Shown: positions 3,171 through 14,864 of the stretch, one piece after another
Position numbering within the stretch: position 1 is the stretch's first letter
Layout: each line of letters opens with the position of its first letter
Origin: Promethearchaeia archaeon
Lineage (GTDB): Archaea; Asgardarchaeota; Lokiarchaeia; Sigyniarchaeales; SOKP01
DNA length: 60,416 nucleotides
Reading direction: 5' to 3'
Assembly: GCA_046483985.1 (NCBI GenBank)
Contig: JAWOCD010000102.1
Location: 1-60,416 of the forward strand
Made by a program: the position numbers and the translations under genes
Notes under the pieces: generated by a model
What the model saw: the letters and a program-made list of their open reading frames with translations, nothing else
Told to the model about the DNA's origin: nothing
The model's database searches: none

Positions 3171-4682
3171 TTAGGCGATATAGCGGATTAAGAGATCTTG
3201 AGTCCGTTCCAAAAAGTTATCCAAATTTTTGTATATTTTTTCTATTATTTCCTCATCGTCTATTAAAAATAATAAAAAGATGGTAAGATTATTTTCAATA
3301 TGTCTCTTTTTTATAATGATGAGATTTGAGGGTGAAATTTTAAAGATTGATTCCTTATTATAACTATCCTTAAAATTCGAATAGAGTTCATAGAGTTTCG
3401 TGAACTGGGGGGCAGTCAATTGGAATACATTCTTGATCTCATGTCCATGACGCTTTAAATTTGCGTCCGTTTTCTCAATTAATTTTTCTGATTCCTCCGT
3501 ATAATAGTCAGCAAGAATTAATCCATCCACACTTAATATTAAAGAAATCAACGCACCAGTTTCCCTTGAAAATTTTTCTAAATTTCTTCTTATTAATTGT
3601 CTGTTTGGACTTAATTTTGAAATGCCCGAGGAAAATGCACGTAATATGGTGGGAACCGAAAAAATACTGGTAACATAGAAATCAACCTTATCTTGAGAGG
3701 TTATTTTCTCAATTTTACCCTTTACTTCTAAAATATTTTGTGTAATTCTCTGAGTATCAATAATATCTGGATCAGCTTTTGTCAGAATGAAAACAATAGG
3801 AGTATCTTGCTCAAGATCTTGATTTTTCTTCTGGATTTTCCGAAGAAATTCAAAACTTTCTTCGAACCGTTGTTCATCATTGATATCAATAAAATAAAAG
3901 ATCAAATCCGAATCGTAAAGATAGATCTGAGCTTTCTTAAGATATTTCTCTCTCAAGTTTTCTTGTCCTCCTAAATCCCAGAGCAAGAAGGTGGCGCCCA
4001 AGGCTCCAATCGTTTTTACATTCATGCCCTTAGTGGGTTTTAATCCTATTAATTTTGAATATTTTTTATCTAATGTAAGCAGAAAGGAGGTTTTTCCAGA
4101 ATTATCTAATCCTGCAAACAACACCTTCATTTTTCGCTGATTGGTAACGGGTAAATAGGGTTTCTCCTCTAATTCTTTTAATTTTTCAAGCAATTCCCTA
4201 AAGATTGGAGTCACTGTTTTTTGATCCGGATATCCATCTTTTATTTGGTTGTTGAGCTCTTTAAAGGTCTCCTTTAGAATCTTTTTATTTCGTTTAATAT
4301 TATTATAGAGAAAATTTCTTTTTTTTTCATGAACTAAGATTGCTAAAGCAGAAGGAACCATTCTTCCATGTTTTTTCGAATATATATACCTGAAATAGGT
4401 GAGCGAGCTCATCTGAAAGTCTGGGTGGGGAATAACAGCGAAATAGTTGAGTGTTTTCTTTTTCTGTTCACTTATCTCTTTATCAGCCACTAAAAGTCCT
4501 AAATTTTTTATAGAGATTTGGACATAATCACGGTAAGTGAATTTGAGATTGTCTTGTTTTGCTTCGGTCTTCTCCTTGTCCGAAACATCGGACGGAAACA
4601 AATATATCGGTTGCGGGCCCAATTTATCATATGCGCTGAATAAAATTGATTTGATAACTGATGTTTCCAATTGTTTTTCCAT
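3171..4682 (-). CDS. Multidomain small GTPase: N-terminal longin/uDENN-like domain, Arf/Rag-like GTPase, C-terminal roadblock-like domain
   Basis: G1 GLDNSGKT, G2 PT, G3 WDLGGQ, G4 TKAD, G5 TSI. N-terminus FSAYDKLGP; C-terminus ALISLILSVDGLILAD. Confidence 0.8.
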   Translation of the reverse strand: MEKQLETSVIKSILFSAYDKLGPQPIYLFPSDVSDKEKTEAKQDNLKFTYRDYVQISIKNLGLLVADKEISEQKKKTLNYFAVIPHPDFQMSSLTYFRYIYSKKHGRMVPSALAILVHEKKRNFLYNNIKRNKKILKETFKELNNQIKDGYPDQKTVTPIFRELLEKLKELEEKPYLPVTNQRKMKVLFAGLDNSGKTSFLLTLDKKYSKLIGLKPTKGMNVKTIGALGATFLLWDLGGQENLREKYLKKAQIYLYDSDLIFYFIDINDEQRFEESFEFLRKIQKKNQDLEQDTPIVFILTKADPDIIDTQRITQNILEVKGKIEKITSQDKVDFYVTSIFSVPTILRAFSSGISKLSPNRQLIRRNLEKFSRETGALISLILSVDGLILADYYTEESEKLIEKTDANLKRHGHEIKNVFQLTAPQFTKLYELYSNFKDSYNKESIFKISPSNLIIIKKRHIENNLTIFLLFLIDDEEIIEKIYKNLDNFLERTQDLLIRYIA

Positions 4683-7112: not shown

Positions 7113-8867
7113 TTAAAGCATACTGGGGGGAGGGGCTTCCAAACAAAAGCCGCATTTGCCAAATTGTTGAATGGTATCTTCCCAACAGTGTTGATGATAG
7201 GCTCTTTCACAATGTGGACATTCAATATAGCACGACTCCCCATCACTTGAAGCGATTGAGAGATGACAAGTAGGACATTCAATCTGATGGCAAATAACAC
7301 AAGATAAAGCCGAAACCTCGAAAATCTTTTTTGAAATCAGATTAAACAAATCCACCAAGTAACTGAATGGAGTCCACTGATTGAAAAAATCCTCAAATGA
7401 GTCTTTTAGATCTGTTTTTATTTTTTCGTGACTTTCTAACTCAAATTTATTAGTTACCTCGATATTGGGAACTTTCATCGGGTATTCCCTGGGGAGTTCG
7501 ATTTCAAAATTAAAAGTAATATCTTGGGATTTCATCTTCCCCTCCATACTGGCTTTTATAATATTTTGAGATGGTACGTATTCTATATCATTATAATCTG
7601 CTTTAAGTAATTCAAGTTCAAAATTAATTCTCGAATTCTTATCAACGAGCCACGAGATTTCTCTGACAATCTCCACAGCGTCTGATTCTTTTTCCTCCCA
7701 ATTCTGATAAGCATTGAGTTCCTCAATCGGCGTATTGATTATTTCTTGAAGCTCAGAGGTCATATCAATCTTAGGAGGGTGTGGATAGGTGATAAGGTCA
7801 ATATCCAAGAGATACTCTTTAAATCCGTAAGTTAAGAGATGAACACGTAGTTGCGTTGCACTATCTTCGATCATATCACATTGGTATTCACCAAGTATCT
7901 TTTTGGACTGTAGGTCAATATCCTTGATAAAATAGAGGTTTTGTTCGATTTCTTGCAGTACATCTACTACATGAGGTTTTTTCTTGGGATTCCATTTCCT
8001 TAAGGTTTCTAATGATTGTTCAGGACTTGGCAAAATTCTTTTTATATTATCCGGAAAGCTTATATGGGGCTTTTTGGGATAATCAGAAAAATCAACCTTA
8101 ATTACAAACGTTTTTGTAAGCGTTACAGTTAAATATACATTGATCTCCCCTAAGGATGTTCCCACTTGATCTATAGCATAATATTTTTGGATTAATCCCA
8201 ATTCCGTATTGATGGCAACACTCGAATGTGGTTTTTCCGTAATTGCGCTTTCCTCTGGGGTAGGTTGAGATTGCGTTTGCGGTTCTGGGGTGAAATATTC
8301 ATTAGGTAAGGTACCACTTGGCTGAGCTTGGCTCTCTGGCTTATTTTGCGGGGGATATTGGTTTTGAGGCTCGGGTGTCACGAATTTATTGGCAATTTCT
8401 TCGTCTTGCGGGGGATATGCATTCAAGTCGGGGGTTATATATTCTTCTGATTCTTCTGATTCTTGAGCAGTTTCAGATTGTGATTTTTCTTGAGGTACCT
8501 TCTCTGGGGATTCTTGTCTCTGGGTGATAGGAACTAAGGCCCCTTCCTCATCGGGTTTTGGTAAATTCAGTGCTTCTTGAATTTTTGCCTTAAGTTCTTG
8601 AACGATTTCCAGCACATGGGAATTAGGGGTCCAACTTAACACACTATTTAATTGGATGTTTCCCAAGAGATCAGACATCGCATTCCCAAATTTTAACTGA
8701 GGGGGGGAATTGGGAAAATTCTCGTTGAACATAATTTCTAACTCATATTTTTGGTCCCCCTTCTCAAAAACATAGCCGTATAAATGGTTTATATTTCCTG
8801 AAACCATCCAAAATTGAAATTTGGATGCAATCTTTTGTGCCTCAGAGAGGATTCGTTCTTTATTCAT
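7113..8867 (-). CDS. Putative E3 ubiquitin ligase: four UBC/UEV/RWD-like folds plus C-terminal C4HC3 RING (FANCL-like architecture)
   Basis: Four [YF]PxxP motifs (FPNSPP, YPKKP, YPHPP, YPMKVP), each followed by a conserved Trp and helix; P/E/Q-rich linker; CPTC...CPHC..YHQHCW...FGKCGFC. Confidence 0.7.
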   Translation of the reverse strand: MNKERILSEAQKIASKFQFWMVSGNINHLYGYVFEKGDQKYELEIMFNENFPNSPPQLKFGNAMSDLLGNIQLNSVLSWTPNSHVLEIVQELKAKIQEALNLPKPDEEGALVPITQRQESPEKVPQEKSQSETAQESEESEEYITPDLNAYPPQDEEIANKFVTPEPQNQYPPQNKPESQAQPSGTLPNEYFTPEPQTQSQPTPEESAITEKPHSSVAINTELGLIQKYYAIDQVGTSLGEINVYLTVTLTKTFVIKVDFSDYPKKPHISFPDNIKRILPSPEQSLETLRKWNPKKKPHVVDVLQEIEQNLYFIKDIDLQSKKILGEYQCDMIEDSATQLRVHLLTYGFKEYLLDIDLITYPHPPKIDMTSELQEIINTPIEELNAYQNWEEKESDAVEIVREISWLVDKNSRINFELELLKADYNDIEYVPSQNIIKASMEGKMKSQDITFNFEIELPREYPMKVPNIEVTNKFELESHEKIKTDLKDSFEDFFNQWTPFSYLVDLFNLISKKIFEVSALSCVICHQIECPTCHLSIASSDGESCYIECPHCERAYHQHCWEDTIQQFGKCGFCLEAPPPSML

Positions 8868-8945: not shown

Positions 8946-11132
8946 TTAAAAATCTTTTTTTTCTTTTTCTTCAGAAACTAAATCCGCAGCAGAGATAAAC
9001 CCAGCTTTTTTTCCTTTTTTCCCTTTTTTCCCTTTTTTCTGAACACTTTTGGTCCTTCCTTCTGGGATAAAGTTCATGGATGATTTTTTGTATAGACTGG
9101 GATCTAATTCTCCAATAAATCGTGAGGGACGTCCCGTTTTGATTTTTCTCCACATTTGAATTATCGCTGGAGTAAGAAGATAGAGTCTGTCTTTTGCCCG
9201 AGTTATAGCCACATAAAAAACTCTTCGTTCCTCTTCCATTTCTTCGGCATCTCCAATAACACGATGTGAAGGGAAATATTCTTCACAAAGCATTGGAATA
9301 AAAACTACTCTCCATTCCAAGCCTTTAGCTCGGTGAATTGTACTAAGAATCACAGGTGGATCTTCTTCTGTCTGATCTCCAGAAACAGTTGTCTTCGATT
9401 CAATGCTATTACGATTTAATGCAAGGATTTCTAAGAATTTCCTCAAAGTATCATACTGTTGTCCATAAATAGCAAGTTCTTCCAAATCATCAAGCCGTTC
9501 CTCCCAGTTTTCATAGGTATCTCTTACATGATCCTCGAGTAAATGAATAATTTTTTTTATGATAAGATCGGGGGAGTCTTGGGGGGTATAATCTACAAGC
9601 GGTGTGAGATGTTTAATAAGGTTTTTCCATCCTTTACTGGGAATACGAGAGCCCTTCATGGTCTTTTTAAAAAAGTTAGGATCGGTAACGGTTTTTAGAG
9701 GGTTTTCGGAGGCAACAAGTTCAGAGAAAATTTTAGTCCCAGAAGTGGTTCCAATACCGTTAACAATTTTAAAGATTCGCATCCACGCAATCTCATCATA
9801 GGGATTATCGATAATTCTCAAATGCACCAGAGTATCTTTAATATGAGCTTTTTCAAAAAAGGAAACACCCGCTCTTACCACATAAGGGATGTTATATTTT
9901 TGAAGAGCCAATTCAATTTTCATGGAATGAAACCCAGATCGAAAAAGGACCGCAATTTGATTTAGATCAAAATCTTCAGACCGAAGACTTAGGATTTCAT
10001 TCGCAACAAACTGCGCTTGCTCCTCATCGTCCGAAAGATTAACCCAAAAAGGCTTTAATCCGTTCGGGCGGGTGGGTTGCATTTCTTTTTGGTACTGTTT
10101 TTCATTATGCATGATAGAGTCATTTGCTAATTCAAGAATTTCTGGACAACTGCGATAGTTGTAGGTGATTTTATACACTTTACAATCGTCATATTTCTCC
10201 TCAAAATTAAGAATATTTTCAAAATTTGCCCCGCGAAAGGCGTAAATGCTCTGGGCATCATCGCCCACCACCATGACATTTTTGTCTGGATTTTGAGAAA
10301 CAATTTTATGGATAATCTCGTCTTGAATATGATTGGTATCTTGATATTCGTCTACCAACACATACTGAATCCGGCTGGCAATCAAGCGGGCAATATGTTT
10401 TTTATCGAGTAATTTGTTCCAATATACCAAGAGATCATCAAAGTCCACCAGGCCGTCCTGTGTTTTCTTTCTTGAATAGATTTTATATACATGTTTTAAT
10501 TTCTTTTCAATTAAATCATTATCAAACTGGGGATATTTCCAGAGAATCACCTCTTTTATGGATTTATCGCAGTTAATAGAATACGATAGAATTCTCTTTG
10601 CCATTTTTGCGGAGGGAAAACGGTTCTCTAAGTTCTCTACATTTGCCTCCTCAATCGAGAGTGTCATTAACGATTTGGCATCCGTTTCGTCCATTATATT
10701 ATAATTGGGCTTTACATCTAATGTCTTTGCATATTGCCGCAAAAATCGATTAGCTATAGAATGAAATGTGCCTGCCCAAATACCTTTGGGTCTTTTTCCG
10801 AGTAGATTCTCCACACGCTTAATCATCTCTTTCGCTGCTTTATTGGTAAAGGTAACCAGCATAATCTCAGATGGATCTACCCCAGATAATAATAATTTCG
10901 CTACAGAGTAGGTAATGGTTCGCGTCTTTCCCGAACCCGCCCCTGCAATAACTAACATAGCCCCCTCAATATTATTGACAATTTCTAATTGCTCTTCATT
11001 CAAATCTTCCTCGAAATCAATATCATTATAATCATAATCGAGTTTCGAAGGGCTCTCTTCAAGGGATTGAGCGAAATCATCTTCATAGTATTCGAACACA
11101 TATTCCTCTCCGTCCGGTTCTTTATCATTCAA
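8946..11132 (-). CDS. uvrD: UvrD/PcrA-family SF1 DNA helicase
   Basis: AGAGSGKT, TFTNKAA, GTFHS, VDEYQD, VGDDAQSIYAFRGA, NYRS, STIHRAKGLEW, EERRVFYVAITRA. Confidence 0.95.
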   Translation of the reverse strand: MNDKEPDGEEYVFEYYEDDFAQSLEESPSKLDYDYNDIDFEEDLNEEQLEIVNNIEGAMLVIAGAGSGKTRTITYSVAKLLLSGVDPSEIMLVTFTNKAAKEMIKRVENLLGKRPKGIWAGTFHSIANRFLRQYAKTLDVKPNYNIMDETDAKSLMTLSIEEANVENLENRFPSAKMAKRILSYSINCDKSIKEVILWKYPQFDNDLIEKKLKHVYKIYSRKKTQDGLVDFDDLLVYWNKLLDKKHIARLIASRIQYVLVDEYQDTNHIQDEIIHKIVSQNPDKNVMVVGDDAQSIYAFRGANFENILNFEEKYDDCKVYKITYNYRSCPEILELANDSIMHNEKQYQKEMQPTRPNGLKPFWVNLSDDEEQAQFVANEILSLRSEDFDLNQIAVLFRSGFHSMKIELALQKYNIPYVVRAGVSFFEKAHIKDTLVHLRIIDNPYDEIAWMRIFKIVNGIGTTSGTKIFSELVASENPLKTVTDPNFFKKTMKGSRIPSKGWKNLIKHLTPLVDYTPQDSPDLIIKKIIHLLEDHVRDTYENWEERLDDLEELAIYGQQYDTLRKFLEILALNRNSIESKTTVSGDQTEEDPPVILSTIHRAKGLEWRVVFIPMLCEEYFPSHRVIGDAEEMEEERRVFYVAITRAKDRLYLLTPAIIQMWRKIKTGRPSRFIGELDPSLYKKSSMNFIPEGRTKSVQKKGKKGKKGKKAGFISAADLVSEEKEKKDF

Positions 11133-12533: not shown

Positions 12534-14864
12534 CTAAAAATAGATTGTTTCTAGGGACGGCAAATTTCTCACATATTCTGGAAGTTCTTCGAGCCCAGTA
12601 TTTCTTAAATCAAGGAGTTCTAATTTTGTTAAGTGTGATAAGTCGGGCAATTTGGTAATCGGATTATGACTTAAATGCAATTCTTTTAAGTTTTTTAATT
12701 TTTCTACACCCTCAATTGAAATAATTTTGTTATCTCGGAGATCTAATTTCTCTAATCTTTTTAAACTTTCAATGCCCTCTACATTTTTAAGATTATTAAA
12801 TAATAAGATTAACTCTTTTAAGTTTGTAAGAGACTCTATTCCATTTAAATTATCTAATTTATTACCTGAGAGATTTAAATATCTTAATTTGGATAATTTA
12901 TCTAAATTTTCAATCTTTTTTAGAAAATTAAATTTAAAATCAAGTTTTCGTAGGTTTTTTAGATTTTCTAAATTCTCTATTCTCTTGATTCGGTTAAAAT
13001 TAAAAGAAAGTAGCTTGAGGGACTTTAATGTGTTAAGGTGTTGGATCTCTTTGATTTTATTAAAAGAAAAACCTAATTTTTCTAAATGGGTAACTTGTTG
13101 AAGACCATTGATTACGGAAATATCTTCAATTTGCTTATTTGCCAGGTTCAGATAATTGTCCTTGACTTCAAAAATTTTATTTTTATAATAAACAACTTCA
13201 AAATTAAACTTCTTTAGGCGTGGTTTGAGAAATTCATAGATATTCTTATTGGGATTCTTGTTATTTTTGAGAATTAACATTGAGAGCAGAGATTTCTTAG
13301 AACCCTTGGGAAGTTCTTGAAAAATCCGAGTAAATAAATTAGGCGATTCGAAAAGGCTATTTATATCTCTCCAGATTCCCGAATATTCGGGATCAATATC
13401 AAGAACCTTTTTATAGGCTTTAATTGCTTTATCATAAATCTTATGTTTTTTATAAAGACGTGCTAAACTTTCCCAGATCTCTATATTGTCCGTTTTAATA
13501 CAACTGAAATCTAAACTTTCAAATTCTTCCTTATCCAAATAATCTAAATATCCTTCATTGATTAAATACAATGAAACGGATCTATATCCTGCTTCTAATC
13601 GGGAGGCAATCTCCTCCTTAAATACCCTTCGGGCAAGCGGGTCTCCTGCTTCGGTCAATTTTTTAAGCAAAGGAAATGCGATATTTCTATGCAATATTCT
13701 TGTATCATAATTATTATCTGCCCACGCTTGAAGATTAGAACAATGACCCCAAAATTCTAATTTAGAAGATATCTTATAATCACTATTAGTTCTAAATTCA
13801 AGAGAATTATCCAATCTTTCCGCTGCCTCGTCAATTGAATCAATAGATTGCAAGGAGGATATCTTTTCTTTTGGTATGTCTAATAGAAGAAATTTGCATT
13901 GATTAAATTTCTTTCCGTTTATATAAATATTCGTTTTGCCTTTTTCTAACTTTAATGATAGATAATCGTTTACATAAAAGATATCTTCATCTTTCTGTCG
14001 TGCTTTTTTTAAAGAAGGATATCTCTCTTGGTCTCGTGAAGGAGATATGGGGTAATCAGAAGAATGATTATTCTCTTCTTGCTCTTCCATATGAAGTAGC
14101 TTTTGAGTCAATACATTCAGAACATCTGTGGCAGAATTTAAAATATCAGGAAACTCTAGAATGGAAGGATCTTGTAATAAATCATTCAGATATTTACTTG
14201 CGAGCCGAGTGTTCTCTTCCTGGATAAGGTGAAGAATTAGATCCAATCGATTCTCGAACTCGGTAATCTTTTCCGGATATTGTTGATGGTCAATATTTTC
14301 AATTGGGACTTGTGAATTTGGGAGAAAATCTAATATCTTTACCTCATTCTCAGTTTTTTCATCCTTCAATAATTTTTCTAGCAAAAGATTGAAGAGAATT
14401 TCTATATTCTCCCCTGTCCTGGAGGAAACTTTAACATATTCAAATAAATTGTAATTTTCCTTAAAGTTTAAAGCATACTCGTCATTTACGGAGATTTCTT
14501 GGGTCAAATCTAATTTAGTTCCCACTAATAAAATAGGCAATTCTGGATTATATCGCCTGCAAATATTCACCCATCCTTCGATATTTTCAAGACTCTGAGG
14601 CCTTGTTAAATCGAAAGTAAGAATAGCCCCATCGGCCCCTAAGACAAACGGTTCCAGACAAAATCGCCAGCGTTCTTGACCAGCAAAATCCCAAAAGGCA
14701 AGAGTGATTGGAGAACCTTGATGAGTAACCGTCTTGCAAGACCACGCAATTCCACGAGTCATAGGAGTATTTGGATTAAAAGTCCCGTCAATGTACCGTT
14801 TGAGGAGAGTAGATCGGCCTACGCCTCCTTCTCCGGTCACTATAATTTTCTTTATACGAGACAT
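12534..14864 (-). CDS. Rab-like GTPase fused to a conserved ~140-aa domain, a TPR and SDS22-like leucine-rich repeats
   Basis: GEGGVGRS, WDFAGQERW, TKLD, SSR; TPR-like WESLARLY...AIKAYKKVLDIDP; about nine LxxLxLxxNxI repeats. Confidence 0.85.
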   Translation of the reverse strand: MSRIKKIIVTGEGGVGRSTLLKRYIDGTFNPNTPMTRGIAWSCKTVTHQGSPITLAFWDFAGQERWRFCLEPFVLGADGAILTFDLTRPQSLENIEGWVNICRRYNPELPILLVGTKLDLTQEISVNDEYALNFKENYNLFEYVKVSSRTGENIEILFNLLLEKLLKDEKTENEVKILDFLPNSQVPIENIDHQQYPEKITEFENRLDLILHLIQEENTRLASKYLNDLLQDPSILEFPDILNSATDVLNVLTQKLLHMEEQEENNHSSDYPISPSRDQERYPSLKKARQKDEDIFYVNDYLSLKLEKGKTNIYINGKKFNQCKFLLLDIPKEKISSLQSIDSIDEAAERLDNSLEFRTNSDYKISSKLEFWGHCSNLQAWADNNYDTRILHRNIAFPLLKKLTEAGDPLARRVFKEEIASRLEAGYRSVSLYLINEGYLDYLDKEEFESLDFSCIKTDNIEIWESLARLYKKHKIYDKAIKAYKKVLDIDPEYSGIWRDINSLFESPNLFTRIFQELPKGSKKSLLSMLILKNNKNPNKNIYEFLKPRLKKFNFEVVYYKNKIFEVKDNYLNLANKQIEDISVINGLQQVTHLEKLGFSFNKIKEIQHLNTLKSLKLLSFNFNRIKRIENLENLKNLRKLDFKFNFLKKIENLDKLSKLRYLNLSGNKLDNLNGIESLTNLKELILLFNNLKNVEGIESLKRLEKLDLRDNKIISIEGVEKLKNLKELHLSHNPITKLPDLSHLTKLELLDLRNTGLEELPEYVRNLPSLETIYF

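Follow-up and report, generated by a model that had tools for sequence, protein, structure and literature searches.

A predicted RING-type ubiquitin ligase with FANCL-like tandem pseudo-E2 lobes in Lokiarchaeia-type archaea

The gene P0001 (7113..8867, minus strand) of the window, by which the whole stretch of 60,416 nucleotides analysed is meant, encodes a protein of 584 amino acids, as given by the ORF listing and the translation. The protein is probably a ubiquitin E3 ligase of the RING type belonging to the Asgard ubiquitin system, and its FANCL-like plan appears to have arisen within Lokiarchaeia-type archaea by repeated duplication of a UEV domain. Four E2-like lobes are followed in it by a C-terminal RING finger, the first lobe being set apart from the others by an acidic linker. 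The reading frame is real, with more than 300 full-length homologues sharing 51–79% identity. The full module, lobes together with RING, occurs in families f1–f3 of a single class and was not found outside that class in the sample of the phylum, 0 of the about 190 sampled genomes from the phylum's other families containing it. All of the features described below lie on the minus strand, and their positions are those of the window.

Pseudo-E2 lobes and the acidic linker

The lobes are marked by [FY]Px2-3P turns at residues 51, 263, 361 and 462, with a conserved Trp downstream of each (79, 292, 390 and 498), and a pattern of helix, four strands and helices is common to all four units in the AlphaFold models. 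Lobe N (residues 1-102; 8562..8867) has a UBC fold without the catalytic Cys and is UEV-like; it was modelled with pLDDT 68-90, reaching about 84-90 in its C-terminal half, and Pfam UQ_con was matched on residues 38-111 with 41.1 bits (cut-off 27). The alignment to Rad6/UBE2A placed Gln72 at the position of the E2 Cys and showed the HPN element to be absent. The retention of the fold, with both the catalytic Cys and HPN replaced, points to an inactive UBC domain of the UEV type. Apart from those of the RING the protein has a single Cys, C330, which lies where lobe 2 begins and does not occupy the E2 active-site position.

Lobe 1 (residues 215-312; 7932..8225) and lobe 2 (residues 313-404; 7656..7931) were both modelled by AlphaFold as pseudo-E2 units, the former UEV/UBC-like, with the turn YPKKP and W292, and the latter UEV/RWD-like, with YPHPP and W390. 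The VIA comparison of lobe 1 with the N-terminal UEV of BRE gave Z 8.4, and that of lobe 2 with the UEV-like domain of VPS37A gave Z 10.2. Lobe 3 (residues 405-520; 7308..7655), containing YPMKVP and W498, is a canonical RWD domain: the Pfam RWD profile (PF05773) exceeded its gathering score on residues 416-508 (34.3 bits, cut-off 22.8), and the RWD fold was found in comparison with the corresponding domains of RWDD1, RNF25 and GCN2 (VIA Z 9.8-10.8, with Z 10.7 for RNF25). Lobes 2 and 3 are joined in the AlphaFold model through one long common helix, and taken together they resemble in VIA the double RWD domains of FANCL (3zqs) and Knl1, with Z 9.8 in both cases.

The comparison of the lobes with each other by hhalign gave E-values of 4.5e-11 for lobes 1 and 2, 2.4e-10 for lobes N and 1, 3.7e-7 for lobes N and 2, and 5e-5 for lobes N and 3. 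Therefore the repetition of the lobes is well beyond chance, and lobes N, 1 and 2 are internal duplicates of each other.

The linker (residues 103-214; 8226..8561) is predicted to be disordered from its composition and pLDDT. Over 111 residues (104-214) Glu makes up 18%, Pro 17% and Gln 13% of it, acidic residues outnumber basic ones by 23 to 7, the AlphaFold pLDDT is below 50, and both its length and its sequence vary among the homologues. Within it lies a conserved short linear motif (residues 141-156; 8400..8447), for which the alignment of 40 sequences gave the consensus EEYITPDLNAYPPDF; P146 and D147 were invariant, and Y143, T145, L148, Y151, P152 and P153 were kept in at least 90% of the 40 sequences. 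The motif was docked on no domain by AlphaFold (pLDDT about 26-31), and no second copy was found in a six-frame search of the genome. The sequence-only reading had proposed four UBC/RWD repeats devoid of the E2 catalytic HPN..C, with an acidic P/Q-rich linker after the first repeat. The repeats were recovered by the motifs, by Pfam (UQ_con and RWD), by the AlphaFold models and by hhalign; Gln72 in lobe N and the location of C330 confirm the loss of the catalytic element, and the linker agrees with the proposal in both composition and pLDDT.

RING finger and its predicted zinc insert

The RING finger (residues 521-577; 7137..7307) contains eight core ligands, namely C523, C526, C550, C553, H558, C561, C572 and C575. 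Seven of these are invariant down to 20% identity and C550 is nearly so; the CVIC pair (C523 and C526) is kept without exception by the relatives down to this level. The eight ligands occur in cross-brace order together with the hydrophobic residues Ile525, Trp562 and Phe574, which are invariant in the long forms and occupy the positions at which canonical RINGs contact E2s. A cross-brace geometry is predicted from this arrangement.

Loop 1 of the RING carries an inserted putative zinc knuckle (C531, C534 and C546; 7230..7277), recognised by its co-variation with position 560. Where the insert is present, position 560 is His (159 sequences), Cys (3) or Ser (1), and where it is absent the residues are N, N, A, N and G; P0095 and P0159 are among the natural forms devoid of the insert. 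The three Cys and H560 are thus predicted to form a third zinc site, the elements of which co-vary and are lost together in variants. The Cys and His residues listed in the sequence-only reading are all present, but their assignment was found to be reversed: judging from the alignment, CVIC, which had been regarded as an extra element in front of the RING, is its first ligand pair, and CPTC is a dispensable insert.

A comparable insert in RING loop 1 is present in the RING-H2 of Rbx1/Roc1, the three-zinc RING of cullin ligases, where it binds zinc with the His of H-x-H-C as the fourth ligand and with an equivalent ligand order. Unlike Rbx1, P0001 has Cys with C-x2-C spacing as the fourth core ligand, not C-x-H, and contains no cullin-binding N-terminal strand; moreover, zf-rbx1 (PF12678) remained below its cut-off, with only 11 bits on the RING against a threshold of 31. 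RBX1 and RCHY1 were marginal matches to the RING in PDB sequence-profile searches, RBX1 ranking among the best with E 0.03-0.08, beside comparable matches to proteins other than RBX1.

When the RINGs of 40 members were compared with Pfam, Prok-RING_1 was matched in 39, zf-rbx1 in 37, zf-RING_2 in 24, C1 in 7, PHD in 5 and FANCL_C in none; RH_dom matched all 40, but with E 0.0015 or worse. Among the RING-type families Prok-RING_1 (PF14446, prokaryotic RING finger family 1) showed the most members and the lowest E (39/40 below cut-off, best E 3.3e-6), its gathering score of 29.1 bits not being reached (P0001 11.2 bits, the short-form relative P0159 27.2 bits). The description of this family is silent on tandem UBC-like lobes.

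Residue 577 is Glu in P0001 and Lys or Arg in most relatives; many RINGs have a basic 'linchpin' near the equivalent position. The protein ends with a PPPxhh tail (7113..7136, including the stop codon), which was recognised from its conservation among relatives. Most long forms have it, as do relatives consisting of the RING only, whereas it is missing in a subgroup ending with CLR. The complex prediction for the RING with the operon E2 gave a score of 0.00 against a mark of 0.32, a value that is uninformative about binding either way.

Ubiquitin genes of the host and of its relatives

The host genome encodes Ub-like proteins (genes on C70 and C99), an E1 (L025:4830-6053), a JAB protease and two E2s that are catalytic (P0251 and a gene of C116). 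A Ub-like/E1/E2/JAB operon is located on contig C99, and the P0001 gene does not adjoin the ubiquitin genes. It is in relatives sharing 24-30% identity that an association with such operons was seen: the short form P0159 heads a ubiquitin-ThiF-UQ_con-JAB-RING operon, a short form in genome G237 is directly upstream of a ThiF E1 gene, and another is directly upstream of the gene of a zf-RING_2 protein. In a paralogue, a lobe-1-type domain is fused to a Prok-JAB protease. No link to ESCRT was found, the Snf7 and Vps28 genes being on contigs C8, C1 and C59, which are not those of the P0001 gene or of the lobe-1 paralogues.

Comparison with FANCL and other eukaryotic proteins

The AlphaFold model of residues 212-584 (pLDDT 85.8, pTM 0.72) showed three UBC/RWD lobes running straight into the C-terminal RING. 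In the Foldseek search of the PDB with this model FANCL was the best match over the full length (9a0j_L, E 5.4e-8; 7kzp_L, E 1.3e-7), followed by BRE (6gvw_C, the third-best match, E 7.3e-7), listerin and CENP-O. VIA aligned 313 residues with FANCL 7kzp_L at Z 9.2, and in the shape search of the ESM Atlas eukaryotic FANCL was nearest after the family itself, with listerin and RNF25 also near. The order of E2-like fold, double RWD and C-terminal RING known for FANCL (PMC4951507) is present in P0001 according to AlphaFold, Foldseek, VIA and the Atlas shapes, and the Foldseek and ESM Atlas matches indicate that the FANCL-like architecture is real. The sequence-only claim of such an architecture in an archaeon is thereby substantiated, the AlphaFold and Foldseek check suggested with it having returned UBC/RWD folds for the repeats and FANCL as the top PDB match.

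Like FANCL (3K1L, 3ZQS, 7KZP), P0001 contains three UBC-fold lobes without catalytic Cys and then a RING with a C4HC3 core ending in FGxCxxC, over about 370 residues. Unlike FANCL, it has an extra N-terminal UEV and the 111-residue linker, its lobes are recent mutual duplicates, its family was found in a single archaeal class among the genomes sampled, and its RING, in which the C4HC3 core is kept, carries the predicted third zinc site, whereas the RING of FANCL is not known to have more than two zinc sites. The protein had been described from the letters as a homologue or analogue of the Fanconi ligase. The analogue is upheld by the full-length structural match, but the homologue is not, in view of the Pfam FANCL models below threshold (see below), the mutual duplication of the lobes, which in hhalign resemble one another more closely than they do any domain of FANCL, and the predicted third zinc site. 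The FANCL-like layout was probably acquired independently, and P0001 is probably not a FANCL orthologue.

An older origin of the layout seems unlikely, if conceivable: the unit of tandem pseudo-E2 lobes and a RING might predate eukaryotes. The Asgard family, long and short forms together, would then be the sister group in archaea of FANCL, listerin and RNF25, the RWD-RING ligases of eukaryotes, and the FANCL body plan would be an inheritance from an Asgard ancestor and no invention of eukaryogenesis.

BRE/BRCC45 (BABAM2) has similar tandem UEV/RWD lobes, but has no RING and scaffolds the JAMM deubiquitinase BRCC36 in the BRISC and BRCA1-A complexes. The position of BRE in the Foldseek search, the sub-threshold Pfam BRE matches in 7/40 members (best E 2.1e-5), the paralogue joining a lobe-1-type domain to a JAB protease, and the C-x2-C-x4-H-x2-C (C4HC3) spacing, which is also compatible with PHD fingers, might suggest that P0001 is a non-catalytic ubiquitin-binding scaffold of this kind, its tandem UEVs organising a complex, possibly with a JAB deubiquitinase, and its Cys-rich tail being a PHD-like module for interaction or structure that recruits no E2. 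This is considered rather improbable, since the RING-family Pfam models reach far more members than those of PHD (5/40) or C1 (7/40), the structural neighbours of the finger are the RINGs of listerin and FANCL, the residues at the presumed E2-contact positions are invariant, and the short forms adjoin E1/E2 genes, as expected of an E3.

It is very doubtful that P0001 is a true relative of eukaryotic FANCL, i.e. its orthologue or direct precursor, performing a Fanconi-like monoubiquitylation, perhaps with UvrD. Such a relationship would agree with FANCL being both the best full-length PDB match and the nearest non-self Atlas shape, with the occurrence of FANCL_C clusters among the protein-language-model neighbours of the RING (0.85-0.88, at the level of a lead only), and with a UvrD helicase gene that ends 78 bp upstream of the P0001 gene on the same strand. 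However, among the 40 members no Pfam FANCL model was above cut-off (FANCL_C 0/40; FANCL_d1 4/40, best E 0.021; FANCL_d2 2/40, best E 0.004), FANCL_d3 was not among the matches listed, and FANCL was not retrieved in the PDB sequence-profile searches with constructs A2 and A3 (RING). The FANCL_C profile search of the genome gave no match on the P0001 gene, with weak matches in unrelated control genomes, and FancD2 (PF14631) had no match in the 97%-complete genome, a weak test in which the control genomes were matched nowhere; FANCL itself works on FANCD2/FANCI as its substrate and with the Fanconi core complex. The duplicate lobes, the restriction of the full module to one class and the predicted third zinc site also argue against this relationship. 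The adjacency of UvrD is common only to a 77%-identical relative (L005) and is absent at L001, L003/L004, L006 and L007; the neighbours at these four other loci are glycan, sulfate-activation or IleRS genes. The idea of a repair operon with UvrD was rejected on the basis of this distribution, and no support was obtained for a Fanconi-type DNA-repair role.

An RWD also abuts the RING in listerin (Ltn1) and RNF25, in which lobe 3 has its closest sequence signal among eukaryotic proteins, but these carry a single RWD in place of three or four UBC-like lobes, and listerin has a long HEAT solenoid. That the RWD-RING end of P0001 is the functional counterpart of these ligases in translation or ribosome quality control is extremely improbable. 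In favour of it, UBC_like (PF23009), a Pfam family found together with listerin families in ESM Atlas clusters, was matched sub-threshold on lobe 3 in 38/40 members (P0001 21.6 bits against 27), lobe 3 and the RING are matched jointly by the listerin RWD-RING (8aaf_e with E 9.6e-5, 9gy4_F with Z 8.2, and rows 3, 4 and 8 of the Atlas search), and the RNF25 RWD matches lobe 3 at the Z given above. Against it, P0001 contains neither HEAT repeats nor any other part that would bind ribosomes, a NEMF/RqcH or translation-factor neighbourhood was found at none of nine loci, and the listerin-type sequence matches are all below the family cut-off.

The preferred reading is that of a RING-type E3 ligase, the FANCL-like plan of which would have resulted when an inactive E2 (UEV) domain was duplicated repeatedly ahead of an RWD-RING unit. 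The positions of Ile525, Trp562 and Phe574 suggest that the RING may recruit charged E2~Ub. In FANCL the ELF domain is reported to bind ubiquitin and the double-RWD domain the substrate (PMC4951507), and by analogy the tandem pseudo-E2 lobes of P0001 may bind substrate and/or ubiquitin. The tethered N-terminal UEV might capture ubiquitin or an already ubiquitylated target, and the linker motif might dock a partner. Points against the ligase reading are Glu577, the PHD-compatible spacing of the finger, the location of the P0001 gene away from the ubiquitin genes of its own genome, and gene neighbourhoods that point to no substrate.

In full-text searches of the literature, multi-domain RING ligases built of inactive E2 folds (FANCL, listerin and RNF25), and likewise the RING-less BRE, came up only as proteins of eukaryotes. 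For Asgard archaea in connection with FANCL, RWD or RING a kinetochore paper alone was found, in which one RWD-like sequence from Asgard archaea is mentioned along with a UEV-like homologue. The P0001 family adds to the complexity known for the Asgard ubiquitin system, in that Lokiarchaeia-type archaea appear to have developed the E2 fold into non-catalytic modules that stand in tandem and are linked to a RING, and shorter versions of the family sit within ubiquitin operons. Inherited or convergent alike, this layout would provide a tractable prokaryotic model for pseudo-E2 lobes directing a RING ligase.

Lobes and structural likeness

The window belongs to an Asgard genome of the Lokiarchaeia/Promethearchaeia type, homologues carrying the label Promethearchaeia; its gene at 7113-8867 (-) encodes a 584-aa protein, P0001. 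Among 5.8 billion proteins searched, 307 were relatives, and the 120 matches listed share 51-79% identity with it over the full length, which shows a real gene under selection. The product consists of lobe N (residues 1-102), a linker, lobes 1 to 3 (215-312, 313-404 and 405-520) and a RING (521-577). The Pfam models UQ_con (residues 38-111, 41.1 bits, cut-off 27) and RWD (416-508, 34.3 bits, cut-off 22.8) were matched, and a [FY]Px2-3P turn (residues 51, 263, 361 and 462) is followed by a Trp (79, 292, 390 and 498) in each lobe. AlphaFold models of residues 212-584 (pLDDT 85.8, pTM 0.72) and of the full length (pLDDT 70.8) gave a common pattern in all four units: a helix, four strands, short helices and a long helix. 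Comparison of the family sub-alignments of the four lobes by hhalign related lobe N to lobes 1 (E 2.4e-10), 2 (3.7e-7) and 3 (5e-5), and lobe 1 to lobe 2 (4.5e-11). The repeats are statistically real; N, 1 and 2 are close duplicates and lobe 3 is a more canonical RWD. Gln72 replaces the active-site Cys in lobe N, and the sole Cys outside the finger, C330, lies away from the E2 active-site position and is not conserved in distant relatives. The sequence-only reading of four UBC/RWD-type repeats devoid of a catalytic E2 Cys is borne out by these data, modelling included. The linker (residues 104-214), described there as acidic and P/Q-rich, contains 18% Glu, 17% Pro and 13% Gln and is predicted to be disordered; its one conserved motif (residues 141-156, consensus EEYITPDLNAYPPDF) docked on nothing in the AlphaFold model and has no second copy anywhere in the genome.

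The predicted structure is FANCL-like, in agreement with the architecture first proposed. In a Foldseek search of the PDB, FANCL came first (9a0j_L, E 5.4e-8; 7kzp_L, 1.3e-7), with alignments of about 390-410 columns against targets of 370-373 residues, followed by BRE (6gvw_C, 7.3e-7) and then by listerin, CENP-O, the FANCL double RWD and Knl1. The TM-scores were low (0.25-0.29) and the rmsd high, so the lobe orientations differ. VIA-align, independent of Foldseek, aligned 313 residues to 7kzp_L (Z 9.2); lobes 2 and 3 together scored Z 9.8 both with the FANCL double RWD (3zqs) and with that of Knl1, lobe 3 by itself Z 9.8-10.8 with the RWD domains of RWDD1, RNF25 and GCN2, and lobe 1 Z 8.4 with the UEV of BRE. 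In an ESM Atlas shape search, eukaryotic FANCL formed the nearest clusters beyond the protein's own family, listerin and RNF25 being next, and FANCL d2-d3 superposed on lobes 1 and 2 at 3.4 Å over 176 residues.

The RING and its putative additional zinc ligands

Across 28 relatives, with identity down to 20%, C523, C526, C553, H558, C561, C572 and C575 are invariant and C550 nearly so; Ile525, Trp562 and Phe574 are invariant in the long forms. CPTC (C531, C534) and C546 are absent from five sequences of three or four lineages (P0095/P0148, P0159, P0190, P0215). Position 560 is His in 159/163, Cys in 3/163 and Ser in 1/163 sequences with this insert, and N, N, A, N and G in the five without it, the sequences being related and the counts not independent. 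The pairing of this loss with a changed position 560 points to C531, C534, C546 and H560 as a putative separate third zinc site, inserted in loop 1 of an eight-ligand C4HC3 RING. The Cys and His residues listed in the first reading are all present, but the roles of the two pairs are exchanged: CPTC, taken as the first pair, is sometimes missing, and the CVIC regarded as extra supplies the invariant C523 and C526. An equivalent arrangement of ligands, including a corresponding H-x-H-C motif, is found in Rbx1. The best PDB sequence-profile matches include RBX1, at marginal values (E 0.03-0.08) and alongside comparable non-RBX1 matches. Among 40 RINGs, Pfam matched RH_dom in 40/40 (best E only 0.0015), Prok-RING_1 in 39/40 (best E 3.3e-6), zf-rbx1 in 37/40, zf-RING_2 in 24/40, ANAPC11 in 18/40, C1 in 7/40, PHD in 5/40 and FANCL_C in 0/40.

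Residue 577 (window 7137-7139), two past the last RING Cys, is Glu, as in RING-only beta-helix relatives; most long-form relatives, the 77-79%-identical ones included, have Lys or Arg. The three-zinc RING with its PPPxL tail also terminates right-handed beta-helix proteins (P0171, P0175, P0181, and P0174 and P0189), with a NosD/Beta_helix body in Pfam and 52-62% identity to residues 520-583. Its presence on both lobe and beta-helix proteins makes this RING a mobile module of these archaea.

Ubiquitin and glycan genes around the family

The genome holds a complete ubiquitin toolkit. On contig C99 the Ub-like, E1, E2 and JAB genes of an operon are followed by one for a membrane protein having a RING-like tail, and a second catalytic E2 lies on C116. 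Among the short-form relatives (about 350-430 aa, three lobes plus RING without the N-terminal UEV), several are grouped with ubiquitin genes: P0159 is first in an operon with ubiquitin, ThiF E1, UQ_con E2, JAB and RING (L023), a ThiF E1 is directly downstream of one short form of genome G237, and a zf-RING_2 protein gene is directly downstream of another and of P0156. A 223-aa paralogue (L034:1554-2225 = G000:C42:11053-11724, +, G000 being the genome of the window) fuses a lobe-1-type UEV to a Prok-JAB/JAMM protease (34.1 bits, cut-off 25) with the HxH...S..D motif (HSHP...SQAD), which connects this type of lobe with ubiquitin handling and recalls the BRE-BRCC36 pairing.

Many of the family's genomes contain ORFs of about 225-240 aa that match the lobe of this paralogue. 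The C99 membrane protein is polytopic (388 aa, L025:7494-8660 = G000:C99:33493-34659, +), with a very basic Ser/Arg/Thr/Lys linker and a C-terminal CxxC...CPHC...H...CxxC finger that matched nothing in Pfam; it is a candidate membrane-anchored E3. Two further lobe-1-type paralogues, on C29 (282 aa, L035:1532-2380, -) and C50 (L016:922-2007, +), matched the family profile at E 1e-18 to 1e-21. The former, whose domain lies between seeming coiled-coil regions and which has no significant Pfam match, could be a UEV-Vps23-like ESCRT-I protein; its gene is apart from the ESCRT genes (C8, C1, C59).

A repair operon with the upstream UvrD helicase (8946-11132) is unsupported, this neighbour recurring only in L005, the locus of the relative with 77% identity; in four long-form loci further removed, the neighbours are instead glycosyltransferases, sugar epimerases, polysaccharide synthases, genes for sulfate activation and IleRS. 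Glycan-biosynthesis genes recur beside long and short forms with identity down to about 25% (L007:7091-7795, L024:4925-6843, L032:7505-9430, L033:7308-8597, also L001, L003 and L006), the window and its closest relative being exceptions. A GT4 glycosyltransferase and/or GtrA/DPMS membrane protein directly adjoins the family gene in three loci, the remainder having sugar nucleotidyltransferases, epimerases and polysaccharide synthases; this adjacency could reflect either ancient synteny or a functional connection with glycosylation. Genes for an Arf/RagA-type GTPase with flanking domains (3171-4682, -) and a Ras/Roc-TPR-LRR protein (12534-14864, -), typical Asgard 'eukaryotic signature' genes, are syntenic with L005.

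Origin and predicted function

Within the Asgard ubiquitin system, P0001 probably acts as an active E3. A BRE-like non-catalytic scaffold is unlikely: the rank of BRE after FANCL in Foldseek speaks for it, and the predominance of RING-type over PHD and C1 models in Pfam against it. A genuine relative of FANCL acting in repair is somewhat less likely still. The structural match speaks for it, and sequence comparison does not support homology, one of the two readings (homologue or analogue) first offered. No FANCL Pfam model exceeded its cut-off for the family, the family profile did not retrieve FANCL from PDB sequences, and the lobes are far more alike mutually than to any FANCL domain, pointing to their duplication inside the archaeal lineage. 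The range is restricted: in a sample of 250 genomes from the phylum, the complete module of three lobes plus RING is near full length in about 30/54 of family f1 (contig ends truncate it in several others) and occurs in one f2 and one f3 genome, f1-f3 forming one class; the other families, roughly 190 genomes, gave partial matches only (two lobes plus RING in f20, lobes without RING in f23). A search for FancD2 gave no match in the genome, an uninformative result since its control matched nowhere either. A listerin/RNF25-like quality-control ligase is very improbable.

The kinetochore-origin paper was the sole return of full-text searches combining Asgard with FANCL or with RWD and RING; it mentions a single RWD-like sequence from Asgard archaea and a UEV-like homologue. 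The P0001 architecture is described neither there nor in the papers covering ESCRT and the UEV-Vps23 protein of Asgard archaea. P0001 is read as a putative RING E3 with RWD/UEV modules. In FANCL, ubiquitin is bound by the ELF, FANCD2 by the double RWD and UBE2T by the RING (PMC4951507). As an active E3, P0001 would recruit E2~Ub through its RING, while the rigid tandem pseudo-E2 lobes may present substrate or bind ubiquitin, the linker motif could recruit a partner, and the flexible N-terminal UEV might capture ubiquitin or a ubiquitylated target.
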